From Myxococcota bacterium (GTDB lineage: Bacteria; Myxococcota; B64-G9), in assembly GCA_022710975.1 (NCBI GenBank), contig JAKLGA010000009.1, positions 245,547 to 309,546 on the forward strand: a stretch of 64,000 nt of DNA. The letters are read 5' to 3'. Shown here piece by piece: positions 7,867 through 64,000 of this stretch (position 1 is the first letter of the stretch; each line of letters starts with the position of its first letter). The notes under the pieces were generated by a model. That model was not told the DNA's origin and searched no databases. It was given only the letters and a program-made list of their open reading frames with translations. The position numbers were made by a program, and so were the translations under genes.

Positions 7867-8420
7867 TCCTTGCACTCCTTGCCCGCGGGCCAGGGATCGG
7901 CCGGCAGGGGCAGCTCGCCGCGGATCTTCCGGAGGTAGGGCTCGCGCTCCACCTTCTGCTGGAGGAGCATCAGGCCCTCGAGCAGCGCCTCGGGCCGGGG
8001 CGGGCAGCCGGGGATGTACACGTCCACGGGCACGATGAGATCCCCGCCCTTGACCACGCTGTAGCTGCCCTGGAACAGGCCGCCGGTGTTGGCGCACGAG
8101 CCCATGGCGATCACGTAGCGAGGCTCGGCCATCTGCTCGTGCAGCCTGCGGATGCGGCTGGCCATGCGGTAGGTGATGGTGCCGGCCAGGATGAGCACGT
8201 CCGCCTGGCGCGGGGTGGGCCGGAACAGGAAGCCGAAGCGGTCGGCGTCCGCGCGCGGGCCGCCTGTCTGCATCAGCTCGATGGCGCAGCAGGCCGTGCC
8301 GAAGAGCAGGTACCAGAGGCTGTGCTTGCGCGCCAGGTTGAGCAGGCCGTCGAGCGGGCCCAGGGCGAAGCCGCCCTCCGGTCCGGCCTCGATGATCGGG
8401 CGGTCGCCGGCGGCGCTCAT
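7863..8420 (-). CDS. nuoB: NADH-quinone oxidoreductase subunit B (20 kDa, N2 cluster)
   Basis: Internal Met MSAAGDRP... then NuoB motifs: [23 protein letters not shown]. Confidence 0.9.
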
Positions 8421-46618: not shown

Positions 46619-48571
46619 ATGCTCCAGACGCGCCTCGCCCCCGTCGGCTCCTCGCTGCTCGCCCTGGTCCTGCTCGCCACGGCCGGCTGCGCCCACGCAC
46701 AGGCCGCGGCCGGCCCGGAGCGCGTGGCCGCGGCGCCAGAGCCCACGGCCGCGCCCGCCGTCCAGGCCCAGGACGTGCCCGACGCCGAGAGCGACGCGCG
46801 CGAGCTCCAGTCGAAGGTGACCCGGGTGACCGTCTACTCCGACCGCGCCCGGGTGACCCGCCAGGCCCGGGCGGAGGTCCCGGCCGCGCCCGCGGTGTTC
46901 GCCTTCCGCGGGCTGCCGGGCTGGGTGGACGACGGCTCGGTGCAGGTCTCGGCCAGCGCCGGCCGCATCGTGGACGTGCGCGTGGATCGCCGCTTCCTGT
47001 CCCGGGCGAGCGACGCGGGCTGGCAGAAGCTCGAGGCCGAGCACCGCAAGCTGGCCGGGCGGCAGGCCGTGCTGCGGGACGAGCTCGGGGTGCTCGAGGC
47101 CCAGCGGCAGCAGATCGAGGCCCTCAAGGCCTTCTCCACGGCCAAGATCAACCAGGACACCCTGCTCGGCACCATCCAGGTGTCGAGCTACGGCGAGCTG
47201 CTGCGCTTCATCGGCGACTCGCTGCGCGGGACGGCCGAGGCCCGGCGCGCGGTCCAGCAGCAGCTCGACGACCTCGCCCCCGAGCTCCAGGCGAGCCAGC
47301 GCCGGCTCGAGGACGCCAAGGCGATGATGCAGCTCGAGGAGACGGTGGTGCTGGTCAGCCTGCAGGCTCCGGCCCCCGCGGACTGCACCCTGGAGCTCAC
47401 CTACATGCTGCCGGGCGCGACCTGGGAGCCCCTGCACGAGCTGCGGGCGAGCACCGCGGACGCGGGCAGCGTCGAGGTCACCTCCTTCGCCGCCATCTCC
47501 CAGACCAGCGGCGAGGACTGGGGCGGGGCGGAGCTGGTGTTCTCCACCCAGTCCACCACCAAGTCGGTGCGCATCCCGGAGCTCGAGGCGCTGGTCCTCG
47601 GCGAGACCACCACCGCGACGCGGGTGCTCACCAGCCAGGTGTCCTCCTTCACCCGGGCCGAGGAGGCCTTCAAGGGGCAGAGCGGGCTGTGGAACAAGGT
47701 CCACGGGGACAAGAGCGCGGAGCGCGCCCGCGAGAGCTTCGAGTCCGTGTTCCAGAGCAACCTGCAGTACCTGCAGGTGGTCCAGGGCCGGACCGTCAAG
47801 CTGTTCGAGAGCCTGGAGCGGCGCGGGACCACGGCGCACTTCCGGGCGGAGCCCGCCGCCAGCGTGCGCGGCGACGGCCACCCGGTGCGGCTGCTCATCG
47901 GCCGGCAGGTGCTCGCCTCGCGGCAGCGGCTGGTGGCCGCGCCCGAGCAGAGCCTGAACGCCGCGCGCACCCTGGTGATGACCAACTCGACCGGCCGGCC
48001 CCTGCTGCCCGGCCGGGTGGCGCTGTACCAGGACGGCGCCTTCCTGGGCATGACCGACATCGAGTTCATCGCCAAGGCCGAGGAGTTCGCGCTCTTCCTG
48101 AGCGTGGCCGACCAGCTCAAGCTGTCGCGCGAGCTCGATCGCAAGCAGAGCCGGCTGGTGCGCAAGACCCGCAGCCAGATGCAGGTCGCCTTCGTGGTCA
48201 CGGTGGAGAACCTGGGCGCCGAGGAGGCCACGCTCACCCTGGCCGACCGCGTCCCGGTGTCCGAGAACAAGGACATCCGGATCGACAAGGTGTCCCTGAG
48301 CCCGTCGGTGAAACCCGACTCGAAGGGGCTGGTCCACTGGGAGCTCACGCTGAAGCCCGGGGAGAAGAGGGAGCTCCGGCTCGGCTACCAGATCGAGTAC
48401 CCGGCCGAGCTGATGATCGAGACCAGCCGCCGGCGGGCGGCCAAGGCGGCCCAGCCCGCCCGGCCCGGGATGCGCGCGCCCGCGGCGGACCCGAACCGCT
48501 ACGACTTCGACGGGGAGAGCGTGTCCCCGGCCGTCGAGGAGCAGATCCTGGATCTCGAGGAGCGGTTCTAG
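46619..48571 (+). CDS. DUF4139-type (mucoidy-inhibitor-like) lipoprotein
   Basis: Lipobox LLATAGC. Long coiled-coil middle. Beta-rich C-terminus resembling DUF4139. Confidence 0.55.
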   Translation: MLQTRLAPVGSSLLALVLLATAGCAHAQAAAGPERVAAAPEPTAAPAVQAQDVPDAESDARELQSKVTRVTVYSDRARVTRQARAEVPAAPAVFAFRGLPGWVDDGSVQVSASAGRIVDVRVDRRFLSRASDAGWQKLEAEHRKLAGRQAVLRDELGVLEAQRQQIEALKAFSTAKINQDTLLGTIQVSSYGELLRFIGDSLRGTAEARRAVQQQLDDLAPELQASQRRLEDAKAMMQLEETVVLVSLQAPAPADCTLELTYMLPGATWEPLHELRASTADAGSVEVTSFAAISQTSGEDWGGAELVFSTQSTTKSVRIPELEALVLGETTTATRVLTSQVSSFTRAEEAFKGQSGLWNKVHGDKSAERARESFESVFQSNLQYLQVVQGRTVKLFESLERRGTTAHFRAEPAASVRGDGHPVRLLIGRQVLASRQRLVAAPEQSLNAARTLVMTNSTGRPLLPGRVALYQDGAFLGMTDIEFIAKAEEFALFLSVADQLKLSRELDRKQSRLVRKTRSQMQVAFVVTVENLGAEEATLTLADRVPVSENKDIRIDKVSLSPSVKPDSKGLVHWELTLKPGEKRELRLGYQIEYPAELMIETSRRRAAKAAQPARPGMRAPAADPNRYDFDGESVSPAVEEQILDLEERF

Positions 48572-48583
48572 GAGGAGGGGAGG

Positions 48584-48600
48584 GCGGGGGCTGGATTTGA
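48584..48600. repeat. 17-bp exact direct repeat of the tRNA-like 3' end (gcgggggctggatttga; second copy at 48739-48755)
   Basis: Exact match read in the sequence. Resembles att-site duplication at a tRNA 3' end. Confidence 0.7.
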
Positions 48601-48696
48601 CCCGTGGCCCACCTTGGTGGGCCACGGACCATCGCACCCGCTGCGCGGGTGCTCAGGCCAGCACGCGAAAACTCGAACTCCAACCCCTTAGCAAAC

Positions 48697-48731
48697 AAAA
48701 GGCCCCGGTAGGAACCGGGGCCTTTTGCTTT
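48697..48731. terminator. Bidirectional rho-independent terminator (GGCCCCGG-tagga-ACCGGGGCC flanked by A-run and T-run)
   Basis: Perfect 8-bp GC stem with AAAA upstream and TTTTGCTTTG downstream. Read in the sequence. Confidence 0.65.
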
Positions 48732-48736
48732 GCTAT

Positions 48737-48780
48737 AGCGGGGGCTGGATTTGAACCAGCGACCTTCGGGTTATGAGGTC
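48737..48780 (-). ncRNA. tRNA/tmRNA-like 3' element: helix + T-arm (GCTGG-TTCAAAT-CCAGC) + 7-nt acceptor 3' strand (CCCCGCT) + A, with no CCA encoded and no 5' partner found
   Basis: Minus-strand read ...GACCTCATAACCCGAAGGTC GCTGGTTCAAATCCAGC CCCCGCT A. Canonical T-loop. Followed immediately by the terminator. A 17-bp piece is duplicated at 48584-48600. Confidence 0.3.
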
Positions 48781-49013
48781 GCGTAAAGCACTTCGGCAAG
48801 CGGGCGTCTTTGTTCGAATTTTCAGGCAGTCCGGGTACCTGACCTTAGGGTCGAGTCCACGGGAGTCCACGCCAGAGCCCCTGAATGCACGCGGGTTCCG
48901 TCAAAGTTCCGTCCACGTTTTCGGCGTCGTCGTAGGGTTTTCAACCCGAAGGTCGGATGGTAGGCCCACCAGTCCCTGGGTCCCAGCCGTTGGTCCTGGT
49001 TTTTTAGGGGGTC

Positions 49014-49550
49014 TCACAGCAGGGAATACGGGTCGGGGCCGAGGTGGCGGTCGTTGAAGTCGGAGACGATCTTCGCCGCCTCCTCCAGCACCCGCGCGTG
49101 CTCCGGGGGGCACAGGACGCCCGGCAGCATGGTGACCGCGGCGAAGCCCCTGAGCAGCCCCGGGTGGTGGCAGGCCACATGCTCGACCTGCCTGACCAGC
49201 ACCCGGCCCGTGTAGCAGGGCGTGCTGCGCTGCATCGCCCCGCGGCGCTTCAACGGCAGGACGAGCGGGGTCTCCGGGGGCGGCTGCGCCAGCGCGCGCA
49301 GCTCGAACTCGAGCCAGGCCAGGTGGGCGCCGGTGTCCAGCCCCTCGAAGTCCCGCACGAAGGCCAGGGGGAAGGGCCGGCCGCCCTCGCCGAGGAAGGC
49401 CTGGCAGAGGGTCCGGAGGCCGGCCTCGAACTGGACCGGCACCACCTCACCGTCCACGGTCCGGCAGCGCAGGCACGCGAGCCGGGGTACCACGCGTCGC
49501 CGGGGCTTGTTCACCATCTCCTTCAACCACTCGAGGTTGGCTCGTTCCAC
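49014..49550 (-). CDS. Hypothetical protein (178 aa)
   Basis: Protein-like composition with no recognizable motif. First gene read after the non-coding stretch. Confidence 0.5.
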   Translation of the reverse strand: MERANLEWLKEMVNKPRRRVVPRLACLRCRTVDGEVVPVQFEAGLRTLCQAFLGEGGRPFPLAFVRDFEGLDTGAHLAWLEFELRALAQPPPETPLVLPLKRRGAMQRSTPCYTGRVLVRQVEHVACHHPGLLRGFAAVTMLPGVLCPPEHARVLEEAAKIVSDFNDRHLGPDPYSLL

Positions 49551-49827: not shown

Positions 49828-49991
49828 CTCCCACCTCCACCAACCTCGACGCACCTGCGCGTACCTTTCTGACCCGGCCCAGGCCTGTTTCTGCCCCCTC
49901 GCGGATTTCTCGTCCGGGCATGTCAGAGCGCTCCAGTCCAGGGCGTCAGTCCTCCTGGTGGGCCGAGAAGGCGGGCTTTCAGGAGGAGATC

Positions 49992-51941
49992 ATGGGCAGG
50001 CCGTTCCGCATGCAGAGGTTCCCAGCCGCGCCGGCCAGGACGCCCGTGGCCGCACCGGCCGAGGTCACGCGCTTCGCCACCCACGACGACCTGCTCGAAG
50101 GCGCGCTGGGCATGCTCGAGGCCCGCGCCCACGCCCGCCGCCAGGCCGAGCAGCAGGAGCGCAGCCCGGAGCGCGACCCGGCTCAGGTGGCCGCGGCCTG
50201 GGAGCTGTCCGAGTCCTGGGCGGCCTGGTTCCACGCCAGCTTCGAGCGCAGCAAGGACCGGCTCGTGCTCTGCCGCCGCGTGCTGGAGGCCGGCCTCCTG
50301 CCGCTCGAACGTGAGCTGCTCCTGGCCCTGCTGCTCTCCCAGCTCGGCGCCACCCGCGCCCGCATCAACAACATCGGCGACCTGGTGGACGAGGTGCGCA
50401 CCCCGGGCATGCGCGCCCTGGAGGCGCTGCGCGCCCTCGGCGAGGACAGCCGGCTGGTCCGCTCTGGGCTGGTGTGCTTCGAGGACCCGGACGAGGAGCC
50501 CTCCGAGCGCACCCCGCTCCCGGCGCCCGAGCTGCTGGCCCGCCTGCTCGGCCCGGACGCGACCGCGGGCGAGGAGCCGCGCGGGCTCGAGGTGGACAGC
50601 CAGGAGGCGCTGTTCGGGGCCCTGACCGGCTTCACCCGGGCCGCCCAGGCCAAGGCCGAGGCGCTGTCCGACCGCGCCCGGGCCATGATGATGCGCCGCT
50701 CCCCGGGCCTGCTGCCGCGCCGCATCTACCGGCTCGAGTGCCTGTTCCAGGCCGTCCAGGCCACGCTCGGCGCGCACCCAGACTGGCCGCTCGCCACCCT
50801 GTTCGCCCAGCCCGGCCTCGGGAACGGGGAACGCATGGCGCTCCTCGTGCTCCTCGGCCGCGACGGCGGCCATTTGCCGGCCGATCACCCGCTGTACCTG
50901 GGGCTCGGCCTGGCGCGGGTGCTGGCCCCGTCCGAGGCCCGGGTGGCCGACTGCCTGGGGGCCCTGTCCCCGCGGGGGACCCTGCTCGGGACCGGGCTGG
51001 TGCAGGCCTGCGACGGGCCGGCCGAGCTGCTGTCCGACCACCCGTCCGCGCTGGCCGAAGTCGCCTTCGAGCTGGGCGACCGGGCGCGCGAGCTGCTGGG
51101 GCTGGACGAGGCGCGCAAGGCCCGCGCCGGGGCGGAAGGGGTGCGCGAGGCCCGCGTGCGACTGTCCCAGCTCGTGCTCCCGCCCGCTGTGCGGCTCGCG
51201 CTGCGCATGGCGCTCGCCCAGGCCCGCCACGGCCGGGTGATGCTCGGGGACTGGGGGCTGGGCAAGAGCATCGCCTACGGCCGGGGGGTGACCCTGCTGT
51301 TCTCCGGCCCACCCGGTGTGGGCAAGACCGCCGCGGCCGAGGGGCTGGCCCGCGAGCTCGGGCTGCCCATCCTGGTGGCCGACTACGCCCAGATCCAGAA
51401 CATGTTCGTGGGCGGGACCGAGAAGAACATCGCAGCCACCTTCCGGCGCGCCCGACGGGCCCACGCGCTGCTCTTCTGGGACGAGGCCGACGCCATGTTC
51501 TACGGCCGCGACCAGGGCCAGCGCCCCTGGGAGGTGCGCGACGTGAACGTGCTGCTGACCGAGCTCGAGCGCTTCGAGGGGGTGTGCGTGCTGGCCACCA
51601 ACCGGCCTGGCAGCCTGGACGCGGCCCTGGAGCGGCGGGTGACCCTGAAGGTCGAGTTCAGCGCGCCGGACCGCGTGGCCCGGGAGAAGATCTGGCGGAA
51701 GCTCCTGCCGAGGAAGCTGCCGCTGGCTGAGGACGTGGACCTGGCGCGCCTCGCGGAGGCGGCCTTGAGCGGCGGGGAGATCAAGAACGCCGTGCTGAAC
51801 GCGGCCCGGCTGGCCATCCTGCGTGGGCCGAGGGCGCGGGTGCGCATGGCGGATCTAGAGAAGGCCGTGGCGCTCGAGCTCGGCGGCAGGCTGCAGAAGA
51901 CGAACGTGCATGCCCTGGGATTCCAGGCAGGAGGTGCGTGA
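49992..51941 (+). CDS. AAA+ ATPase with ~400-aa N-terminal domain of unknown function
   Basis: SD AGGAGG before the Met at 49992. C-terminal Walker A (LLFSGPPGVGKTAAAEGLA), Walker B (LLFWDEADAMF), sensor and arginine-finger region. Confidence 0.8.
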   Translation: MGRPFRMQRFPAAPARTPVAAPAEVTRFATHDDLLEGALGMLEARAHARRQAEQQERSPERDPAQVAAAWELSESWAAWFHASFERSKDRLVLCRRVLEAGLLPLERELLLALLLSQLGATRARINNIGDLVDEVRTPGMRALEALRALGEDSRLVRSGLVCFEDPDEEPSERTPLPAPELLARLLGPDATAGEEPRGLEVDSQEALFGALTGFTRAAQAKAEALSDRARAMMMRRSPGLLPRRIYRLECLFQAVQATLGAHPDWPLATLFAQPGLGNGERMALLVLLGRDGGHLPADHPLYLGLGLARVLAPSEARVADCLGALSPRGTLLGTGLVQACDGPAELLSDHPSALAEVAFELGDRARELLGLDEARKARAGAEGVREARVRLSQLVLPPAVRLALRMALAQARHGRVMLGDWGLGKSIAYGRGVTLLFSGPPGVGKTAAAEGLARELGLPILVADYAQIQNMFVGGTEKNIAATFRRARRAHALLFWDEADAMFYGRDQGQRPWEVRDVNVLLTELERFEGVCVLATNRPGSLDAALERRVTLKVEFSAPDRVAREKIWRKLLPRKLPLAEDVDLARLAEAALSGGEIKNAVLNAARLAILRGPRARVRMADLEKAVALELGGRLQKTNVHALGFQAGGA

Positions 51942-52363
51942 TGTCCATCGCCTACGTGACCTGTCCCGACTGGCAGTACATCGAGCTCGCGGGCGAGCAC
52001 CCGGTGATCTCCGGCTGCCGCCGCATCGACGTGCAGCCGGACGACCCGCTGCTCGACTGGAAGAACATCGTGGTCTATCTGGAGTTCCACAGGCCGGATC
52101 GGAAGAACCCGGACGACACCCGCCCCAAGGGGTACACGGGCCGGTTCCTGATCCGGAAGATCGCCCAGTGCATGCGCGGCTACCCGGGCATCCTGCCCAA
52201 CGCGGTCATGCTGCTGCTGGACGAGTACGAGCCGAACGACGTCGAGACGCTGATGATCAAGGAGCAGGTGACCGATCTGCTGGTGCGCGCCGAGCGGGTG
52301 GGCGGGACCCTGAAGGCCCGCAGCATGCTCGAGATCGCCGAGACCACGGCCCCGCCGGCGTGA
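51941..52363 (+). CDS. Hypothetical 140-aa protein translationally coupled to the AAA+ ATPase
   Basis: SD AGGAGGTG 6 nt upstream. ATG overlaps the ATPase stop (TGATG). Confidence 0.55.
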   Translation: MSIAYVTCPDWQYIELAGEHPVISGCRRIDVQPDDPLLDWKNIVVYLEFHRPDRKNPDDTRPKGYTGRFLIRKIAQCMRGYPGILPNAVMLLLDEYEPNDVETLMIKEQVTDLLVRAERVGGTLKARSMLEIAETTAPPA

Positions 52364-52365
52364 GC

Positions 52366-52788
52366 TCACCCCTCCATCTTCGTCACCTTCACCCCGACCT
52401 CGCGCAGCACCCACGCGCCCGTCCGCAGCATGCGCCGCAGCAGGCCGAGGCGGGCGTTCAGGAACCGCTCCAGGCTGAGCCCGACCAGCTGGGTGAATAG
52501 GGTGTAGGCCCCCTTCGAGCTGGAGGGCGGCTGGTAGGTGGGGATCTCCAGGTACTCGGCCGGCGGCTCCCAGATGGCCTCCCAGGTGACCGGGACCAGG
52601 TAGCAGGCCTCGGGGTGGAGGGCGAGCAGGTGCTCCCGGTCGGCCAGCAGCTGGTCCCAGCTCCTGGGGTCATACAGCTCGGACAGGAAGCGCGGCGGCG
52701 GCTGGCCGGGCCAGGCCGGGCCCTCCACCAGGTGGCTGGGCGCGAGGCTCTCCTCCGGGACGACCGCCACGATCAGTGCGTTGCCCAT
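52366..52788 (-). CDS. Hypothetical protein (140 aa)
   Basis: Last gene of the minus-strand XRE-lipoprotein operon. No motif recognized. Confidence 0.45.
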   Translation of the reverse strand: MGNALIVAVVPEESLAPSHLVEGPAWPGQPPPRFLSELYDPRSWDQLLADREHLLALHPEACYLVPVTWEAIWEPPAEYLEIPTYQPPSSSKGAYTLFTQLVGLSLERFLNARLGLLRRMLRTGAWVLREVGVKVTKMEG

Positions 52789-52801
52789 CAGGGGCCTCCG
52801 C

Positions 52802-53868
52802 TCACGGCACGGGGACGATTCTGACCTCGAGCCGGGTGAGGTAGGCGCCCTGGGTCCAGGTGAAGCCGCCAGCCTTCAGGGAGCTCAAGCTCAGCGGGTC
52901 GGCCTGCACCCCCCCGATGAACTCGTAGTCGGTCACGTCGCTGTCGTAGGCCATGAACATCCAGCTATCCGTGGCGTAGATGTCCTCCTGGAAGGACTCG
53001 TTCCACACGGGGTTGTAGTTGTCCGACTTCTCCGTGGTGCTGAAGATTGGCTGCCCGGTGTCCGGGTCCGAGTTGCGGTAGACGCGGACGATCGGATCGG
53101 GCATGCCGCCCGGGAAGTCCCACGCGTCGCCGGACTGGTCGTAGTCGGAGACCGTGGCCGAGACGATGGTGAAGGTGTACCGCCGACCGTAGGCCGGCAC
53201 GCAGTCCCCGCCGATGCACAGCGAGCTCGAGTCGCACACAGCGTGGCTCGCGCAGGTGCAGCGCCCCGTGGCGTCGCAGCCCTGGCCCGTGGGGCAGGTG
53301 CCGCACGACTGCCCGCAGGTGGGATCCGGGCCGCACTCCCGGCCGGTGCAGGTCGGGGTGCAGCCGCCCACGCACAGGCCGTTCCCGTCGCAGGTCTCCC
53401 CGGTCGGGCAGCTGCCGCACGCGGCCTGGCCGCCGCACCCGTCGTCCCAGGAGCCGCACTCGTGGCCGAGCTGGGGGCAGGTGGCGGGCGTGCACGAGCC
53501 GCACCAGCCGTCGTTGTCGAGCACGTCGACGATGTTGTTCCCGCAGGCGGAGCTCTCGATGCACCCGGACAGGATGTTCTCGGGGATGACATAGTCGATG
53601 AGGTCCAGGGTGCAGCTTCCGTCCTCGAAGGTGTGGTCATCCCCGTACGTGAGGCAGGTGCAGTCGCCGTCGTAGACCAAGGGGTACTTGCCCTGGGTCA
53701 CACAGTCGCACTGACAGCAGTCGCGGCCGAGGCAGTAGGTGCCTACTGCCTGGTACACCTGCATCGCCACCCTGGTGCAGTCGTCCTCCGCGTTGCCTCC
53801 CTCGCCGCCGCAGCCGGCGAGCAGGGCAACGAGCATCAGCGCAATCGTCCACTTGCCTTTCCTCATGG
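52802..53868 (-). CDS. Cysteine-rich lipoprotein with CGxCPTGxxCDxxGxC repeats and a C-terminal C2-like (Ca2+/lipid-binding) beta-sandwich
   Basis: SD AGGAGG. Lipobox LLAGCG. CGSCPTGETCDGNGLC / CGTCPTGQGCDATGRC repeats. C-terminal ...RVYRNSDPDTGQPIFSTTEKSDNYNPVWNESF resembles a C2 domain. Confidence 0.65.
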
Positions 53869-54138
53869 TTCTCCTCCTTGGCCGACCGCGACCGCGCTCT
53901 CCGGTCCCAGGCACTGGAGCAGCTCGGCTGGCTGGACCCCGAGCGCGCGGGCCAGGCGGATGATGTTGAGCACGCTCAGGTTCCGCTCACCGCGCTCCAC
54001 GCTGCCCACGTAGGTGCGGTGGAGGCCCGAGCGGAAGGCCAGCTCCTCCTGGGTCAGCCCCTGCTGCTGGCGCTGGTCCCGGATCCATCTCCCCAGGGTC
54101 ACGAGGTCGGGGTCCATGCGCACCTCACGGTAGGCCAC
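53863..54138 (-). CDS. XRE-family helix-turn-helix transcriptional regulator
   Basis: LTQEELAFRSGLHRTYVGSVERGERNLSVLNIIRLARAL (Cro/C1-type HTH). Confidence 0.75.
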   Translation of the reverse strand: MAYREVRMDPDLVTLGRWIRDQRQQQGLTQEELAFRSGLHRTYVGSVERGERNLSVLNIIRLARALGVQPAELLQCLGPESAVAVGQGGEP

Positions 54139-54383
54139 ACCTTGGCGATCGGTCTACAGACTCCGAGTAGCAATGCGGCCTCCAGCGCGGGTTCTCGCAT
54201 CCGCGCGCCACTGCGAGGGTGCATGAGCAAGGCCGGTGCCAGCGGGCTCCCACGCGCGGAACGCCCCGGCGCAAAGGGGATCCGGGCTGGACCCGGGCTG
54301 AAAGGCCGTTCAGCGGGGGATGAGACTCCGGGTCATCAGATTCTGAGCACCCTCCCTTGGAAATGGAAAAGGTCGGAGGATCC

Positions 54384-55109
54384 ATGTCCGATCCGCTCCG
54401 CCTCGGTCGTCAGTCTTCCTGGGGAGAGAGGGCAGGGCACTTGAAGGTGATTGTCCCAGCGCAGGGCGGTCCTGGTGCGAGGATCGAGGACGGGCGGGTG
54501 CGGGTCTGCCTGCACCTGCACACCCGGCCCCGCTCCTCGGACGCCTCCCTGGATCCAGTCGACGCGCTGTGCATGGCCGCCGCGGCCGGGGCGGACTTCC
54601 TGGTGCTGACCGAGCACGACGCATCCTGGACCCCTGCGGCCCTGGCCGAGCTCCGCGCGGCCGCCGGGCCCGAGGCCGCCAGGACCGTCCCCCTGGGCGG
54701 CCGGGAGCTGTGCCTGCCCGACGCCCACCTGCTGGTGGTGGGCGCCTTGCCACCGCTTGCGCCGGAGCTGATGGGACCAGGCCAGACCCGGGCCCTGGTC
54801 GAGGCGCTGCACCGGGCTGGCTGCGCGGTGGTGCTGGCACATCCCTGGGACGTTCGCTGGCAGATCCCGCCCCGGATGGCAAAGGAGTGGGGCGTGGATG
54901 CGGTGGAGGTCGTGGGCGCCCGGCACCGCGAGCCTGGCGATGCCGGGCTGGCCGCCATGCGGGCCGCGGGCCTCCCGGGCGTGGCCGGCGTGGACGCCCA
55001 CCACCCGGAGCACCTCGGCCTGATCCCGGCCTGCCTGACCCTGGTGCCTGGCTGGGTGAGGGACGAAGCAGGCTTGATCCGGGCCATCCGGAGGGGAGAG
55101 GTGGCCTGA
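54384..55109 (+). CDS. PHP-domain metal-dependent phosphoesterase
   Basis: SD GGAGG before the Met at 54384. CLHLHT...SSDAS N-terminal His motif, later HPWDV / VDAHHP. Confidence 0.65.
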   Translation: MSDPLRLGRQSSWGERAGHLKVIVPAQGGPGARIEDGRVRVCLHLHTRPRSSDASLDPVDALCMAAAAGADFLVLTEHDASWTPAALAELRAAAGPEAARTVPLGGRELCLPDAHLLVVGALPPLAPELMGPGQTRALVEALHRAGCAVVLAHPWDVRWQIPPRMAKEWGVDAVEVVGARHREPGDAGLAAMRAAGLPGVAGVDAHHPEHLGLIPACLTLVPGWVRDEAGLIRAIRRGEVA

Positions 55110-55146
55110 ACCTGTCGACGCCTGCGGGATGTGGGATCTGACTGAA

Positions 55147-55204
55147 CACCGTGTCTGGTGGCAGGTGTCTGGTTTGAACCAGCCACCAGACTCCAGACAC
55201 GGTG
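55147..55204. repeat. 58-bp imperfect palindrome centred on CTGGTTTGAACCAG. Outer arms CACCGTGTCTGG / CCAGACACGGTG perfect.
   Basis: Read in the sequence. The core is related to the tRNA-like motif at 48744-48763. Confidence 0.7.
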
Positions 55205-55281
55205 CCTCGACCATCGCACCGTTTGTCAGATCCCCGCCCACCCCGGCGTCGGTATTCTCAGAAGCAAGGAAAGGAGCCCCC

Positions 55282-55488
55282 ATGTACGCGAAAGCCAGGC
55301 AGGGTGAGCTGACCGACCTGTCGTCGCAACAGGTGTCGCTGGTGAAGTGCGCGAGCGAGTTCAACTACCGGGTGCTGATGAGCAAGAAGGACCCGTGGGT
55401 CGAGCCGGACCCGCGGACCTTCCCGAAGCTCGACCAGCTGGCGCAGATCCTGTTGACCGCGCCGGCCCCGCTGCTGCCCGACTGCTAG
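55282..55488 (+). CDS. Small hypothetical protein (68 aa)
   Basis: SD AAGGAAAGGAG. Moderate-complexity sequence. Confidence 0.4.
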   Translation: MYAKARQGELTDLSSQQVSLVKCASEFNYRVLMSKKDPWVEPDPRTFPKLDQLAQILLTAPAPLLPDC

Positions 55489-55561
55489 GGGCACCCGGGG
55501 AGAGTCAGATCCCTGGCGTACAGATCGTCTGTTCCCGTAGGGACAAAGGAGGTCCCGGACC

Positions 55562-56896
55562 ATGGAGACGATCGCGAGCGCGGCGGTGGCGTTCCTGGTG
55601 GGTGGCGTGCTGGCCTTCCTGGTGACCGCGCTCCTCATGCGCCGGGCCGCCAGCGCCGAGCTCGCCCGGCTGGCCGGGTTGCTGTCCGTCGAGCGCGAGG
55701 GGCGCATCCGGGTGGAGAGCCAAGCCCAGGAGACCGGGCGGCGGCTCGAGGAGGAGAAGGCGCTCCTCTCCGAGGCCCAGACCCGGCTCACCGACGCCTT
55801 CAAGGCGCTGGCCGGCGACGCGCTCAGCGCGAACCAGGCCGCCTTCCTGCAGCTCGCCCAGGAGCGCCTCGCCAAGCTGGTCGGCCAGGCCCAGGGTGAC
55901 CTCGGCCAGATGGCGGTGCAGACCCGGGGCGACCTGGGCAAGCACCAGGAGGCGCTCACCGGGCTGCTCGCCCCGATCGCCGAGAAGCTCAAGGCCTTCG
56001 ACGACCACCTCCACGTCCTGGAGAAGCTCCGGCTCGAGTCCGCCACCCGGCTGGAGGGCCAGATCAGCGGCCTTACCGGCTGCCAGGAGAAGCTGCAGAA
56101 GGAGACCAAGAACCTGGCGAACGCGCTCCAGCACCCCCAGGTGCGCGGCCGCTGGGGCGAGGTGACGCTGCGGCGGGTGGTGGAGCTCGCCGGCATGAGC
56201 GCGCATTGCGACTTCGACGAGCAGGTCACGGTCCAGGACGCCGAGGGCGCCAGGCAGCGGCCCGATCTGGTGGTGCGCCTGCCGGGCGGGCAGAACCTGG
56301 TGGTGGACTCCAAGGTGGCGCTCGAGGCCTACCTGCGCGCCGTCGAGTCCCCGGACGAGGCCACGCGCCAGGCCTGCCTGGCGGACCACGCCCGCCAGAC
56401 CCGGAAGCACATGGACGCCCTGGCCTCGAAGAGCTACTGGAGCAAGTTCGAGCCCACCCCGGAGTTCGTGGTGATGTTCATTCCAGGGGAGTCCTTCTTC
56501 GCCGCGGCTGTGGATCAGGACCCCACCCTCATCGAGGACGGCATGGCGAGCAGAGTCGTGCTGGCCACCCCGACCACGCTCATCGCGTTGCTGCTCTCCG
56601 TGGCCTACGGCTGGCGCCAGGAGCAGCTCGCGGAGAACGCCCAGCGCATCAGCGAGGCGGGCCGGCAGGTGCACGAGCGCCTGGCCAAGCTGGTCGGCTT
56701 CCTGGCGAAGTTCGGTGGGCAGATCCACAGCCTGACCGCGTGCTACAACGAGGCGGTCGGCTCGCTCGAGTCGCGGCTCCTCCCGGCCGCCCGCAGGCTG
56801 GAGGAGCTGGGCGCAGGCAGCGAGAAGGCGATCCCGGTCCTCGAGCCGGTGGACCTGGTGCCCAGGGCGCTGGAGGCGGGGAAGGAGGGGGAGTGA
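55562..56896 (+). CDS. rmuC: DNA recombination protein RmuC
   Basis: N-terminal TM and coiled coil. RmuC core (GRWGEVTLRRVVELAGM, FVVMFIPGESFF). Confidence 0.85.
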   Translation: METIASAAVAFLVGGVLAFLVTALLMRRAASAELARLAGLLSVEREGRIRVESQAQETGRRLEEEKALLSEAQTRLTDAFKALAGDALSANQAAFLQLAQERLAKLVGQAQGDLGQMAVQTRGDLGKHQEALTGLLAPIAEKLKAFDDHLHVLEKLRLESATRLEGQISGLTGCQEKLQKETKNLANALQHPQVRGRWGEVTLRRVVELAGMSAHCDFDEQVTVQDAEGARQRPDLVVRLPGGQNLVVDSKVALEAYLRAVESPDEATRQACLADHARQTRKHMDALASKSYWSKFEPTPEFVVMFIPGESFFAAAVDQDPTLIEDGMASRVVLATPTTLIALLLSVAYGWRQEQLAENAQRISEAGRQVHERLAKLVGFLAKFGGQIHSLTACYNEAVGSLESRLLPAARRLEELGAGSEKAIPVLEPVDLVPRALEAGKEGE

Positions 56897-57025: not shown

Positions 57026-59326
57026 CTATTCGATGGCGATGATGTACACCGCCCCAGAGTTGGTTCCAAGAGTATCCTGCGTGTAGTCCCCAACGATTGC
57101 AGTGCTCCCGCTGAGCGAAACTGAGTTTCCAAAGGAGTCGATCCCTTCGGTCACAGGTGAATCTACACGCAGGAGCAGGCTCCAGGTTGCGTCTGGATTG
57201 CGGCGGAAGAAGTGAACGTCGTTTTCGGTATGGCTACTTCCGACAGCTAGAGTGTCATTGAACAGGCTTACAGATAGGCCAAAACCATTCTGGGCTGGTG
57301 AGCTTGGTAATACCTTAGCCTCGTGCTCCCATGTGTTTGACCCCGTTCTCCTGAAGATGTAAACAGCTCCGGAACCGGTCGTTATGCCGTCCTTTCCTTG
57401 CGCTCCCATGGCGATCCAGTCGCCATAGATACTTGCCGCAAAGCCGAAATTGTCGTCGGCTGCAGCGTCGTAAGCCACGATCTCAGTGGCGTTACCCCAC
57501 GAATTTACGTCGGTACGTTGAAACACAAATGCCGTTCCAGCCCCTCCACTAGCGCCGACGACTGCGTAGTCTCCATCGACTGCAACTGAGGATCCAAAGC
57601 CTTGCCCGCCCGGCGCGGCGATGACCGTGCCAGCATCCCAAGTGTTTTCTCCAGTGCGATGATATATGTACGCTGTGTTGGCGTTCCGGGCTCCAACGAT
57701 GGCATAGTCACCACTGAGGCAGACAGCGGCTCCGAAGAAGGCGCCTCCCTGGAACCTTACTCCAGCATCCCAGGAATTGATGTCTGTTCTGTGAAAAATA
57801 TACGCTGAATTTTTCCGGTGTTCACCGACAATTGCATAGTCACCACTGATCGAGACGAACATGCCGAAATTCGAATTCACTTCAGGATTGTGGGAGTACA
57901 CCCTTGTCCCAGTGTCCCACATGTTCGGCCCAGTCCTGTGGATGATGTGCGCTGAGCCAGCATTCGAGTCCACACCATAGGAACCGATTATCGCATAGTC
58001 CCCATCAATTGCTACCCCCGTCCCAAAGTATCCATACTCTGAGGGCTCAGGTGAATAGAGCTCGGATATGTCAACACAGATGCTCTGATTGATGCACGAC
58101 TCTCCTTCACGGCAGCATGTTCCGTTGCAGACCACCCAGCCGCAGTTGCAGCTTCCACTGGCATCGCAGAGTTCGCCAGCCTCACATGTTCCGCAATCGA
58201 ACCCACCGCGCGGCGAAGGACCGCACAGCCTCCCGACGCAATCATCGAAGCATTGGCCATCAGCATCACACCATTCAGTTGCACCCGGACAAGTACCACA
58301 ACTGTATCCTGCGTTGGGAGATGGCCCACAGCTTCGACCGATGCAGTCATCCTCACATTGGCCAGCAGCAGTGCAGTATTCTGTCGCCCCGCCACATGTT
58401 CCACAGTTATGTCCATCGTTGGGCGACGGTCCACAAGTTCGGCCCAGGCAGTCGTCAACGCATTGACCAGCGCTTGTGCAATAATCCGTCACTCCTTGGC
58501 AACTCCCGCAATCAAGGCTCAAGTGAGGCGAAGGACCGCAGACTCTTCCAAGGCAATCGTCACCGCACTGGCCGCCATCGGAGCAATAGTCGTCTGCCAC
58601 TGAACATACCCCGCATGAAAGGCCAAGTGTAGGCGACAGCCCACAAATTCGCCCAACGCAGTCGTCAATGCAATGGCCCTCTGGATCGCAGTACTCTGTC
58701 TGGAGAGCACAGGAACCGCAGAAGAAGCCCGGACGGTTTGGGGATGCACCGCAGACCCTGCCAGCGCAGTCGTCCAGGCACTGCCCCGCGGCCGTGCAGT
58801 AGTCGTTCTCTCCGCTGCAGGTCCCGCAGGTGTGGCCGAGCGTCGGGGAGAGGCCGCACTCCAGGCCCGCGCAGTCATCCACGCAGGCCCCCTCCTCCGA
58901 GCAGTACTCATCCTCTCCCTCGCATCCGCCGCAGTCGAACCCCGCCACGGGCGAGGTCCCGCACCGGCCCAGACAGTCGTCGATGCACTGGTTTCCGGCA
59001 GGGACACAGTACTGGGTCGGGCCTGAACAGCTGCCGCAGAGCTTTCCGATGTTCGGCGACTGACCGCAGAACCGTCCAGCGCAGTCGTCGATGCATACCT
59101 TGGCTGGCGTGCAGTACAGGTCCCCATCACAGGTGCCATCGGAGTAGCAGGGCTCGCCGAGGTTTCCAGCCGCGAAGCATCGGTAGTCGACGCAGGCCAG
59201 GCCGCTGTTGCAGGTACCGTTGTCCCTGCACGGTTCGCCGGAGTGGCCGACCCCGTGGAGGCCGATGTCGCAGCCTGCGGCACCGGCCAGCAGCGAAGCC
59301 AGGATGACGAGCGTGGAGTTGCGCAT
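57026..59326 (-). CDS. Lipoprotein with ~9 tandem Cys-rich repeats (DDCxGRxCGxSPxxGxxCGxCxGxxxYCxxxGxC) and C-terminal FG-GAP-type beta-propeller repeats. Reduced GC.
   Basis: SD GGAGGTG before the Met at 59326. Lipobox LLAGAAGC. Repeated GDYAIVG...FG.SV...GDYA blades. Confidence 0.7.
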   Translation of the reverse strand: MRNSTLVILASLLAGAAGCDIGLHGVGHSGEPCRDNGTCNSGLACVDYRCFAAGNLGEPCYSDGTCDGDLYCTPAKVCIDDCAGRFCGQSPNIGKLCGSCSGPTQYCVPAGNQCIDDCLGRCGTSPVAGFDCGGCEGEDEYCSEEGACVDDCAGLECGLSPTLGHTCGTCSGENDYCTAAGQCLDDCAGRVCGASPNRPGFFCGSCALQTEYCDPEGHCIDDCVGRICGLSPTLGLSCGVCSVADDYCSDGGQCGDDCLGRVCGPSPHLSLDCGSCQGVTDYCTSAGQCVDDCLGRTCGPSPNDGHNCGTCGGATEYCTAAGQCEDDCIGRSCGPSPNAGYSCGTCPGATEWCDADGQCFDDCVGRLCGPSPRGGFDCGTCEAGELCDASGSCNCGWVVCNGTCCREGESCINQSICVDISELYSPEPSEYGYFGTGVAIDGDYAIIGSYGVDSNAGSAHIIHRTGPNMWDTGTRVYSHNPEVNSNFGMFVSISGDYAIVGEHRKNSAYIFHRTDINSWDAGVRFQGGAFFGAAVCLSGDYAIVGARNANTAYIYHRTGENTWDAGTVIAAPGGQGFGSSVAVDGDYAVVGASGGAGTAFVFQRTDVNSWGNATEIVAYDAAADDNFGFAASIYGDWIAMGAQGKDGITTGSGAVYIFRRTGSNTWEHEAKVLPSSPAQNGFGLSVSLFNDTLAVGSSHTENDVHFFRRNPDATWSLLLRVDSPVTEGIDSFGNSVSLSGSTAIVGDYTQDTLGTNSGAVYIIAIE

Positions 59327-59327
59327 C

Positions 59328-61016
59328 TTACCACCTCCCCCCAAAGGAGAAGGTCGCTCCACCGTCGGTGGGGACGATGGAGAGCGCTTCCGGGTGGTCC
59401 TTGAACCACTCCCTGTCCTCTGGCGCCATGAACCACAGGACGGCGCCGGCCACGAGCAGGGCGAAGCCGGTGCCGAAGCTCGCGTACATGACGCCCGCCC
59501 AGGTCCGGCTCTTCCCGGCGGCGTCCGGGTCTCCTGCCTTGTCGTCATCCCCGTACGTGTAGGTGAGGCCGGTCGCGGCCGCTCCGAGCACCGACAACCC
59601 CACGCCCGACCAGAAGAGCCCGTGAGCCCACCTGGCCATCGGGTTCATGGGGTAGATCCGGGCCAGGGACAGGGCGACCACGGCTTCTTGCCCCGCCTGG
59701 AGATCGACCTCCTGGACCACTCCCACGTGGCCCTCCAGCGTGGCCTCGATCCGGTACTTCCCCGCAGGGAGATCCCTCCTCAGGGGGGCGGAGGCGCCCG
59801 GCTCCTGGCCGATGGCGACGAGCGCACCGGGCGGATCCGTCTCGACGACGAGGCTCGCCGGCGGAATCGTCCGCAAGGCCACCTTCAATTCGGTTCGCAT
59901 CCCGTTGGCGATCACGAACTCCCGCCTCTCGGGCAGGTACCCCTCCATCTCGATGACCGCGAAGTACGAACCAGCCTCCAGGTTGTTGGCCGCAAAGGGG
60001 GCCTCAGCCTCGGCCAGGGTCTGCCCTTCCGAGTTCTCCAGCGACACATTGGCCCCCCTGGGCTCCGAGGTGACCCACAAGACACCGGGCTGGGTGTTCC
60101 TCAGGGTGATCTTCAGGGTGGTGTCCTTGTTGGATTCCACGGTCACCTGGTACTGGTTGGCGGCGAAGCCCTCGAGCTCCGCGGTCACCTTGTAGGTGCC
60201 CTCGCGCAGCGCGACCAGGATGGGCGAAGGCCCCAGCTTGTTGTAGCCGCTGATCAGCACAGAGGCGCCAGCCGGCTCCGTCGTGACCGTGAGCCGTCCC
60301 GGAACGATCTCCCGCAGCAGCCTCTGCCCCTCTGCCTCGTAGGGATTGTCGCCGGCGTACGCGGAGAGGAAATGATGGAGCAAGCGCACTCTCGTTTCCA
60401 GCTGGACGGACTCATCCTTCGCCAGAGAGTAGAGGTACGACCAGTTGCTCCTTATCTCTTCCTGCAGCTCCTTGGCATTCCTGGTGTCCTTGAGTAGCTC
60501 CTCGAACTCGAGCACCGCCTGTGTGGAGCCCGCTTCCCTGGCTTTCGCGGGCTGGCAGAGCTTCGCGGCGATCGTCCTGATGGCCGCCAGCAGTGATTCC
60601 TCCTTGCAGGTGGAATCACCCGTCGCGGCGCCCTCCGTGGCGGCTTTCTTCAGATCATAGAGTGTCGCGGTCACCTGGCAGGTGTTGCCGATCTTCAGGA
60701 TCTGGGAGGAGAGGGTCTTCTGCGCGGCCAGCTCCCCGCCGAGCTCGATCTGGCAGCTCGCGTCGTAGCAGGCCTTGTAGCTGTCCTTCTTCTGCTGGAC
60801 CAGCCTCTCCTTGATCTGTTCGCGGGGAACCAGGCCGAATCCGCACTCGGCCAGGCTGGCCGAGAGAAACTCCGTCAGGTTCTGCCGGGTCTTCGGGTCG
60901 AGCCCCGAGCCGCGGTCCTCCATGTCGAACACGGCCACGAGGGGCAGGTTCTGCCCCTGGGCCACGCTGGGCCATACGGGAAGGCCAATGACCGCCAGCA
61001 AGACTAGCCGCCTCAT
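59328..61016 (-). CDS. Secreted protein with three PEGA domains and a C-terminal TM segment
   Basis: Internal Met MRRLVLLAVIGLPVWPSVAQG. PEGA-like TTEPAGASVLISG...YKVTAELEGF (x3). Confidence 0.65.
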   Translation of the reverse strand: MRRLVLLAVIGLPVWPSVAQGQNLPLVAVFDMEDRGSGLDPKTRQNLTEFLSASLAECGFGLVPREQIKERLVQQKKDSYKACYDASCQIELGGELAAQKTLSSQILKIGNTCQVTATLYDLKKAATEGAATGDSTCKEESLLAAIRTIAAKLCQPAKAREAGSTQAVLEFEELLKDTRNAKELQEEIRSNWSYLYSLAKDESVQLETRVRLLHHFLSAYAGDNPYEAEGQRLLREIVPGRLTVTTEPAGASVLISGYNKLGPSPILVALREGTYKVTAELEGFAANQYQVTVESNKDTTLKITLRNTQPGVLWVTSEPRGANVSLENSEGQTLAEAEAPFAANNLEAGSYFAVIEMEGYLPERREFVIANGMRTELKVALRTIPPASLVVETDPPGALVAIGQEPGASAPLRRDLPAGKYRIEATLEGHVGVVQEVDLQAGQEAVVALSLARIYPMNPMARWAHGLFWSGVGLSVLGAAATGLTYTYGDDDKAGDPDAAGKSRTWAGVMYASFGTGFALLVAGAVLWFMAPEDREWFKDHPEALSIVPTDGGATFSFGGRW

Positions 61017-62752: not shown

Positions 62753-63005
62753 GTCACCTCCTCGTGGATCGTCGCGGAAGGGTCTCCTCCGAGCGTAGTG
62801 CCCGACCCGCCTCGGCTTCTACAGCCGATAGTCATCATGGGCGGGACCAGACTTCTGCCCGACTGGAAGGGAGGACGACCATGGGCGTGGGAATCTGACC
62901 GGTTGGGCAGAGAAAACGGCGTGCGAGTGTGCTAGAATTCCACTTCGTTGGTGCTCTGGCGAGGAACCGACGCTGAAGCCGTGGCGCAAGAGGGAGGTGG
63001 ATTCC

Positions 63006-64000
63006 ATGGGTCTCGAGGAAGAACTCGAGCGAAATCAAGCTGCACTGGAGGAGATTATTGAGATCACTTGTGAGAGACCCGATTCGATCATCCTGTTCCT
63101 ACCTGTAGATTCTGGTGAACGGTTGGCTGAAGCAGAAAAGGCGAGGCTTGCTTTCCCAAAGCTGTTCGGACTTGAGCCGAAGTTATGTTCCGCTGAAAAC
63201 GCTTTGTTGTCTGCTAGCACGAGGGATGCGAAATCTGAAGCGAACCCTCTGCGACATTGTGTATTCGGTATAAAGCGGATGTCTATCGGAAGCCTCACCC
63301 AACAGATCGATCGGCTGCCGAGGTCACTATCCATCTATTGCGATGCAAATTGGTTGTCGGGGTCGATGGCTTTTAGGGCATTCCTGTTGAAACACTACTA
63401 CATTCGATGGTTGGTTTGGATTGATAACGAGAGAGTGACTTGCTCTATTCCTGCCGTGATTTCTAGATTAGTTCTTATTCGCGCCATTGCGAAGGGTAGT
63501 TCGACTCCGCCATTGCTTCGGGTGGCTTCGATTATGGGTAACGATCTTACAGCCTCAGTTGATAGGATTAGAGAGTGCCGAAGGATGAAATCAGTCGGTG
63601 ACTATGGACGGACGATTATCATAGCATCTAGTGAATCGCTACTTCCGGGTATGCCTTGGTTCTTTGGCAGCTTTCAAAAAGACCACTTTGAAAATCTCGG
63701 GGCCTTTAGCGAGCTGATCAAGATTGGAGAGGCGGTGCACCTTCGTGATGTAGCTGCCCTTCTCCGCCCAATCGCAAAGGGTGCTTTCGGAAAAGATGAT
63801 ATTGATGAAGACGAGTCGACACCTGGGGATAAAGGTGTCCCATGCTACTGTGGCTCTGATGTTTGCGCGGACGGAACGCTAAGGAATCCTAGCCGCTATG
63901 TTCCTAGGGATTCTGTTGACAAGGACAACCTTCTTCTTGAAGGAGATATTCTGGTTCCTTCGGTTTACTCGGGAACACTGCTGCCAACCGCAAGGATCAG
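63006..64000 (+). CDS. Partial ORF of unknown function in a low-GC segment (>331 codons, no stop before window end)
   Basis: SD GGAGGTG before ATG at 63006. Open frame to 64000. Visual GC about 47% vs about 70% elsewhere. Not in the ORF track because it has no stop. Confidence 0.5.
   Translation, partial: MGLEEELERNQAALEEIIEITCERPDSIILFLPVDSGERLAEAEKARLAFPKLFGLEPKLCSAENALLSASTRDAKSEANPLRHCVFGIKRMSIGSLTQQIDRLPRSLSIYCDANWLSGSMAFRAFLLKHYYIRWLVWIDNERVTCSIPAVISRLVLIRAIAKGSSTPPLLRVASIMGNDLTASVDRIRECRRMKSVGDYGRTIIIASSESLLPGMPWFFGSFQKDHFENLGAFSELIKIGEAVHLRDVAALLRPIAKGAFGKDDIDEDESTPGDKGVPCYCGSDVCADGTLRNPSRYVPRDSVDKDNLLLEGDILVPSVYSGTLLPTARI

Follow-up and report, generated by a model that had tools for sequence, protein, structure and literature searches.

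A probable attR-type junction at a displaced initiator tRNA-fMet fragment in an uncultured Myxococcota genome

Genomic islands that tyrosine integrases insert into tRNA genes have been catalogued in Islander (Hudson, Lau and Williams 2015, PMC4383910, which cites Williams 2002), where the crossovers are placed in one of two loops, the anticodon loop or the T loop, or at the T/acceptor junction, and the anticodon-centred 'A' site is the commonest class (PMC4383910). Islands of this kind, in which Islander requires the fragment to lie downstream of the tRNA gene on one replicon, co-oriented with it and 2-200 kb away, have an integrase gene directly downstream of a regenerated tRNA gene, a displaced 3' tRNA fragment whose identity starts from the anticodon loop when site 'A' is used, and extra, shorter fragments in tandem arrays. 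The symbiosis island of Mesorhizobium loti, a tRNA-integrated integrative and conjugative element (ICE), reaches 611 kb (PMC4383910), and the tRNA fragments found at attR have been mis-annotated as tRNA genes (PMC9897764). Here we describe a locus of this type in a 64,000-nt stretch of DNA (the window; GenBank contig JAKLGA010000009.1, positions 245,547-309,546) from an uncultured Myxococcota population of anaerobic-digester metagenomes, among them samples 3300025706, 3300010429 and ERZ27257456; coordinates given without a locus name are those of the window. The noncoding region between 48584 and 49006 carries the 3' part of an initiator tRNA gene (tRNA-fMet), and is very probably an attR-type junction (P-O-B') produced when a tyrosine-integrase element recombined with that gene. 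The type of scar is common and well understood (PMC4383910, PMC9897764); its lineage is new, and it is tied to an integrase family that is specific for tRNA-fMet.

We built a profile from 26 intact tRNA-fMet genes and ran it with nhmmer against the entire window, where the three best matches all fall within 400 bp. The best of these, fragment A, matches profile positions 33-74 at 42 of 42 nucleotides (E = 2e-13) and comprises tRNA-fMet nucleotides 32-73 on the minus strand of 48736-48777, CTCATAACCCGAAGGTCGCTGGTTCAAATCCAGCCCCCGCTA. Together with a 5-nt trailer, TAGCA, it forms the core identity block O at 48731-48777. Identity opens precisely with C32, where the anticodon loop begins, and ends with discriminator A73 and the trailer, fragment A being the only one of the three matches to reach the 3' end of the tRNA gene. 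Its segment CTCATAA-CCCGA-AGGTC corresponds, in an initiator tRNA, to the anticodon loop, the 3' half of the G:C-rich anticodon stem and the variable region, and the T arm (GCTGG-TTCAAAT-CCAGC), the 3' strand of the acceptor (CCCCGCT) and the discriminator A are present as a first-pass annotation of this DNA had described them. The hairpin that the same annotation placed beside them proves to be an inverted repeat, GCGACC/GGTCGC (minus strand, 48759-48782, read directly), which brackets the anticodon-loop junction and may provide two core-type half-sites; a comparable GACC...GGTC arrangement is seen in the orphan fragment L067. Read along the minus strand, the tRNA-derived block is followed after 8 nt by a strong bidirectional intrinsic terminator (48696-48727), also anticipated in the first pass, for which the terminator scan gives 14 pairs and a T-run on each strand and which ends a plus-strand muiA-family gene as well.

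The source gene had been proposed to be either a tRNA or a transfer-messenger RNA (tmRNA) gene. ARAGORN finds no tRNA and no tmRNA gene over the whole window, tmRNA gives no Rfam match there even at E <= 10, and the fragment has the hallmarks of an initiator tRNA, namely CAU in the anticodon loop and, in the anticodon stem, the CCC side of the GGG/CCC pairs; the tRNA half of the proposal stands, specifically as initiator tRNA-fMet, and tmRNA is rejected. The earlier statement that a complete tRNA cannot be built agrees with the ARAGORN result and with Rfam, which returns no match over the window at gathering thresholds. When the thresholds are made permissive, the sole tRNA match (RF00005, model positions 43-63) is to the T arm, with 14.7 bits against a gathering score of 29. 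The fragment therefore poses no annotation problem, since neither ARAGORN nor Rfam calls it a tRNA, unlike the mis-annotated attR fragments of PMC9897764, which it otherwise resembles in being a partial tRNA gene that stems from element integration and provides no functional tRNA.

The exact 17-bp repeat reported in the first pass, GCGGGGGCTGGATTTGA, has exactly two copies in the window (48584-48600 and 48738-48754), which can be lengthened to 20 nt if one mismatch is allowed. The copies do form a close direct repeat, although the spacing measured from start to start is 154 nt and not the 155 bp claimed. One copy lies inside fragment A, and the repeat exists because a second, shorter tRNA piece, fragment B, is located 154 nt further downstream. 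Fragment B (GGgTCAAATCCAGCCCCCGC, minus strand, 48584-48603) holds the other copy and runs from the T loop to the 3' strand of the acceptor, matching profile positions 53-72 at 19 of 20 nucleotides (E = 0.034 for the whole window); it ends at nucleotide 71, 2 nt short of the discriminator. A chance resemblance of the repeat and the tRNA-like features might be considered in a GC-rich genome, given that shuffled sequences contain on average 0.34 matches to GCGGGGGCTGGATTTGA with up to 3 mismatches and that 5 of 100 shuffles gave at least two matches at 3 mismatches. Two exact copies 154 nt apart are a different matter, however, and the longer copy agrees with tRNA-fMet at all 42 positions and with the organism's own gene at 47 of 47; coincidence is thus refuted, and the probability that we would still attach to it is negligible.

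This own gene was located by a metagenome scan with the CCA-less form of the sequence (...GCTATAG), which returned three contigs from the same samples as the window, all of which encode one identical intact 73-nt tRNA-fMet according to ARAGORN. At the corresponding locus, L144, the intact gene occupies 6993-7065, and a 47-nt block at 6988-7034 is identical to window 48731-48777 (47/47). It is this identity block, and not the 17-nt repeat, that is the informative unit. Textbook initiator tRNAs have C1-A72. The initiator tRNA of this organism and of related Myxococcota (L144, L036, L076 and others) has a U1-U72 mismatch, and its CCA is not encoded, the trailer reading TAG.... About 100 nt downstream of the intact gene ends a convergent gene for a 361-aa tyrosine integrase, P0121 (PF00589, E = 2e-19), preceded by an excisionase-like HTH_17 gene, and an AbiEi-like gene and the gene for a 3315-aa FG-GAP protein are found farther on the integrase side. 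Accessions for P0121 and for the MuiA, 178-aa and HATPase proteins occur in two NCBI metagenome-assembled genome (MAG) series, HOX45641-46037 and HRY96587-96666, which places the integrase and the window proteins in one binned genome; the contigs of the two sites have similar coverage in sample ERZ795055, 4.3x and 3.8x. The locus shares with the Islander islands the displaced 3' fragment, the identity from the anticodon loop (site 'A'), the integrase directly downstream of what would be the regenerated tRNA, and the extra shorter fragments of tandem arrays. The first pass had suggested that an integrase left this mark by acting at a tRNA gene, and that suggestion is supported. On the chromosomal side of the intact tRNA, L144 also contains repeats of 250-350 bp (8086-8333 and 11286-11628; ~87% identity) at which several assemblies break.

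The DNA directly 5' of fragment A has features of its own. Window positions 48738-48875 align over 138 nt at 74.6% identity (E = 6e-19) with L057, a locus of the Myxococcaceae MAG JTS-RE235 that comprises an orphan tRNA-fMet fragment and the DNA 5' of it; as 48738-48777 is the tRNA block itself, the arm homology extends over 48778-48875. Within this flank, the tandem pair GAGTCCACG-g-GAGTCCACG (48853-48861 and 48863-48871; CGTGGACTC on the minus strand, 10-nt spacing) is unique in the window, with 0 such pairs expected by chance, and L057 keeps a tandem pair at the same position as CGTGGACTCgCGTGcACTC, so that the aligned form reads CGTGGACTC-n-CGTG(G/C)ACTC. A second tandem pair, GTTCCGTC-aaa-GTTCCGTC (minus strand, 48895-48913, 11-nt spacing), is unique as a pair (0.02 expected), its 8-mer occurring three times in the 64 kb, and L057 has a different repeated 9-mer pair in its place. 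In addition, the 15-mer CGTCAAAGTTCCGTC recurs at L144 6903-6917, between the stop codon of the integrase gene and the intact tRNA, and is oriented alike there with respect to the tRNA. The CGTGGACTC pair may provide Xis or Int arm-type sites and the GTTCCGTC pair putative integrase arm-type sites, and on the evidence of sequence comparison the ORF-free stretch 48782-48930 (minus strand) looks like the P arm of an attP.

In phage lambda, attP consists of a core flanked by arms that carry Int arm-type and Xis sites. The present locus is similar in having a ~150-bp arm with two direct-repeat pairs at 10-11 bp spacing, one motif that is found on both arms, and an excisionase-like HTH gene upstream of int, and by analogy the direct repeats spaced by one turn and flanking the core resemble those of such an attP. 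The motifs are unrelated in sequence to those of lambda, however, and the two arms are assembled here from separate junctions. We infer that the arm repeats may bind Int or Xis. The excised form of attP, represented by a chimeric P-O-P' sequence and the two P-arm motifs, has no matches in viral contigs.

The same comparisons bear on the possibility that fragment A is a decayed pseudogene, that is, a second tRNA-fMet copy whose 5' half was removed by some unrelated deletion or insertion, the 17-nt copy having arisen by local duplication. Such an origin would fit the lack of an integrase in or near the window, the terminator that follows the fragment as it would a native gene, and the trailer TAGCA, which equals that of the organism's real gene. 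It does not explain why the break falls exactly at the first anticodon-loop base, a classical crossover site, or why the sequence on the 5' side of that break has a homologue in the flank of an orphan fragment from an unrelated Myxococcota, and a rare motif in common with the integrase-proximal arm of the intact locus; moreover, the sequence between the two 17-nt copies is not itself duplicated. We consider a pseudogene to be decidedly unlikely.

The first-pass annotation had also proposed that the ORF-free stretch of 275 nt at 48731-49006 may be a structured noncoding RNA (ncRNA). A functional RNA could be either this 275-nt molecule or the transcript of the adjacent 178-aa gene, with a tRNA-like 3' untranslated region in which the T-arm/acceptor mimic and the terminator assist stabilization or processing. 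The stretch is free of ORFs and lies between terminator-like elements, and the intergenic region does not vary among the eight metagenome contigs that cover it in full (a ninth stops within fragment A), all of them from one population. Furthermore, transcription of the minus-strand 178-aa gene would meet no terminator before 48727, making read-through of the tRNA-like piece plausible. Rfam, on the other hand, gives nothing at gathering thresholds and only chance-level matches below them, a scan finds no promoter-like site, and the sole detectable homologue is another element arm. Folding without the terminator is indistinguishable from that of shuffled sequences (z = -0.43 for the plus and -0.34 for the minus strand); a longer minus-strand stretch that includes the terminator has z = -3.47, but this value vanishes when the terminator is omitted and is hence attributable to it. 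The proposal of a structured ncRNA is thus not supported, the anatomy resembling that of an attP arm instead, and a functional ncRNA or tRNA-like untranslated region is very unlikely. Two lesser claims about this stretch survive in part. The second hairpin with a T-run exists as an imperfect stem of 4+2 pairs followed by T6 (plus strand, 48984-49005, read directly), with the stop codon of the convergent 178-aa gene 8 nt away, although the terminator scan did not call it and the minimum-free-energy fold pairs its T-run. The lower GC content is likewise present but modest, 0.66 for 48001-49000 versus ~0.72 for the window.

In the attR-type interpretation that we prefer, the element would have brought its own copy of the tRNA 3' part within attP. 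Crossover in the anticodon loop would have restored a complete tRNA next to the integrase (attL), and displaced the original 3' part, with its terminator, to the far end (attR), where it would now be seen as fragment A (48731-48777). The ORF-free stretch 48782-48930, lying 5' of fragment A, would then be the P arm of attP, and the DNA to the right of fragment A would be the element side. The recombinant attP junction would consist of CGCGACC, the 47-nt core and GAACTGAAGGCCCC, and the recombinant attB junction of GGTAGCTCGTCGGG, the 47-nt core and AAGCAAAAGGCCCC. The direction and the order of these events are what the arrangement of the two sites suggests, as is the derivation of the window junction and the remote attL from one event.

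Fragment B is most likely the relic of an earlier integration that crossed over in the T-loop region, so that A and B would be the remains of a tandem array and the 132 bp between them the stump of the earlier element. The two fragments begin in the anticodon loop (A) and in the T loop (B), each of which is a crossover sublocation of tyrosine integrases. Abutting fragment B, within the 132-bp segment, is a perfect 12-bp palindromic hairpin, CCGTGGCCCACC-tt-GGTGGGCCACGG (48602-48627, no strand assigned), which has no repeat elsewhere in the window; the segment also contains the terminator. Fragment C (TCGTaGGGtTttcAACCCGAAGGTCG, plus strand, 48930-48955) is the second-best profile match in the window (21/26, E = 0.029) and represents an internal piece of the tRNA, with a degenerate anticodon arm and variable region. 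It is inverted relative to fragment A, forming a 13-nt perfect inverted repeat with 48760-48772, although its orientation is ambiguous because the anticodon arm is palindromic. It is not conserved in L057, and its 10-mer GACCTTCGGG is the same as that in the extended junction inverted repeats of the phage-type orphan fragments L016, L017 and L042. Fragments B and C are probably older scars, C being either a further relic, perhaps of an old core, or a secondary site.

Several observations weigh against this reconstruction. The absence of U72 and A73 from fragment B means that it is not an undamaged native 3' end, which weakens its reading as an older scar, and the 132-bp 'element' between B and A has no recognizable element content. 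Neither an integrase nor an intact tRNA is found in the ~25 kb from fragment A to the end of the contig. The two sites are on separate contigs, Ga0209507_1000032 and Ga0209507_1000037, and on NODE_84 the integrase side of the intact tRNA extends for more than 166 kb, with no fragment in its first 11 kb. Any resemblance in trailer and terminator outside the 47-nt block lacks statistical significance, being reached in 26 of 300 shuffles. Finally, no syntenic empty site was identified in relatives, whose best proteins are at most 72% and mostly at most 70% identical; the two long relative contigs examined, from Nannocystis sp. and Myxococcales MAGs, have no synteny, and a scan of genome contigs with the MuiA-family protein found nothing.

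Given the separate contigs and the run of more than 166 kb, the two ends are at least ~190 kb apart, or they have been rearranged, or they derive from separate events. A very large element, with an interval of at least ~190 kb, is possible; so is a rearrangement that separated the two ends, and so is a second tRNA-fMet locus of which the window junction is the rest, its attL end having been deleted. In having the tRNA and integrase on one contig and the fragment on another, with an interval of at least ~190 kb if the contigs are collinear and no integrase within 25 kb on the fragment side, the locus differs from the islands of Islander. The M. loti island offers a precedent for a very large attL-attR interval, and relatives of the integrase described here reside in relaxase/TraG elements; unlike that island, this locus has no conjugation genes visible in the 25 kb beside the fragment or the 10 kb beside the integrase. 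It seems unlikely to us that attR and the remote attL are the live ends of one excisable unit, whether an ICE-like element of at least ~190 kb or a defence island that lacks an integrase and is moved in trans by the remote one. Only if they were, as one live element that is very large or mobilized in trans, would the locus be notable in itself.

The integrase family prefers tRNA-fMet. Three of the four examined relatives of P0121 adjoin tRNA-Met(CAT), and P0149, P0146 and P0130, which are 59-60% identical to P0121, show the same order of an HTH_17 gene, int, and a convergent tRNA-Met(CAT). P0146 and P0162 belong to elements with MobA/TraG (relaxase) or TraG/primase/SSB genes, i.e. of the ICE or integrative and mobilizable element type, and in none of the examined elements of these relatives was the far junction found within 10 kb. 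A Myxococcales MAG, AS27yjCOA_137, provides what is likely a complete island at the same target on a 30.8-kb contig (JAAZNF010000045.1; L035 and L036). This contig carries an intact tRNA-fMet and an orphan fragment in the same orientation, both with the trailer TATAG, at a distance that the locus lengths put at 12-28 kb, and the intact tRNA is followed by an integrase with 29% identity to P0121.

Eleven viral contigs match the 38-nt tRNA core, two with an intact tRNA-Met(CAT) and nine with orphan 3' fragments; proteins encoded on the viral contigs that share the tRNA fragment have no homologue in the window. Among GTDB species genomes, at least 118 stretches from many phyla contain the core, and most of these are intact tRNA-Met(CAT) genes, with ~27 orphans among the matches listed. 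The 38-nt 3' segment is identical across many phyla, Eisenbacteria, Acidimicrobiia, Phycisphaerae and Chloroflexia included. In a set of IMG/VR contigs (L016-L025), the orphan tRNA-fMet fragments start at nucleotides 22-27 and include CCA. In four of these contigs (L018, L019, L020 and L024) a ParB-like gene is situated 1-2 kb into the element, several others have ATGCATCC repeats upstream of the core, and a conserved host gene of ~277 aa lies downstream in those checked (L016, L018, L020 and L024).

The element side begins with the minus-strand 178-aa gene (49014-49550), which has no family match and starts a defence-rich, integrase-less region. Within the window it is followed by genes for an IetA-like AAA ATPase (49920-51941), a control-protein-type HTH protein (84 aa) with a 354-aa partner, and RmuC, and by low-GC FG-GAP and PEGA genes; beyond the window there are a low-GC 756-aa ORF, a BrxHI/SngC-like DEAD helicase, an HATPase_c_3 protein and an nSTAND6-type STAND NTPase. 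Defence-type content spans window 49920-56896 and L010 1-6114 (window-equivalent ~66.6-72.7 kb), and by its gene families this content resembles a defence island. Homologues of the HATPase protein with ~60% identity are present in Vicinamibacterales and Planctomycetota, suggesting horizontal spread. A prophage on this flank was considered and rejected, as PHROGs gave only generic ATPase and HTH matches. The statement in the first pass that no integrase is nearby holds for the window and for the 9.9 kb beyond it to the contig end, and a tblastn search of the window and the adjacent 8.7 kb with P0121 detected no integrase remnants. There is no tRNA up to window-equivalent ~72.7 kb and no tRNA-fMet fragment in the last 0.7 kb of the contig. 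The contig ends ~25 kb from fragment A in an insertion sequence (IS)-like repeat that interrupts a DUF1232 gene; at this point (L158 14480-14622, window-equivalent ~73.8 kb) there is an IS terminal-repeat-like array, GTGACAAAGTAGACCGGGGACATAGGTGACACC, and all examined assemblies stop there.

If our interpretation is correct, the region marks one boundary of horizontally acquired, defence-rich DNA in an uncultured Myxococcota. The labels tRNA, tmRNA and novel ncRNA should all be avoided when the tRNA-like piece is annotated. The comparison also documents a Myxococcota tyrosine-integrase family that, with an HTH_17 partner, targets the initiator tRNA gene, together with candidate arm-site motifs, which could help if such integrases were sought as tools for myxobacteria.

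Three further features of the window lie outside the junction. A fourth T-arm-like profile match, at 55167-55187 (E = 0.3), was taken as chance; it falls in a palindromic hairpin (55159-55196) between a PHP_C-like gene and a 68-aa gene, and the T-arm-like sequence that this hairpin contains, CTGGTTCAAACCAG, is probably fortuitous. The gene for an 840-aa FG-GAP_2 repeat protein (57026-59548) has a conspicuously low GC content of 0.54-0.60, and assemblies call it as products of 278-766 aa. The 756-aa ORF, which runs from window 62997-64000 to ~65267 (L010 7486-9756, minus strand in that locus), has no family assignment and is split by gene callers into products of 304-352 aa, and its GC content is ~49% in a genome of 72% GC.

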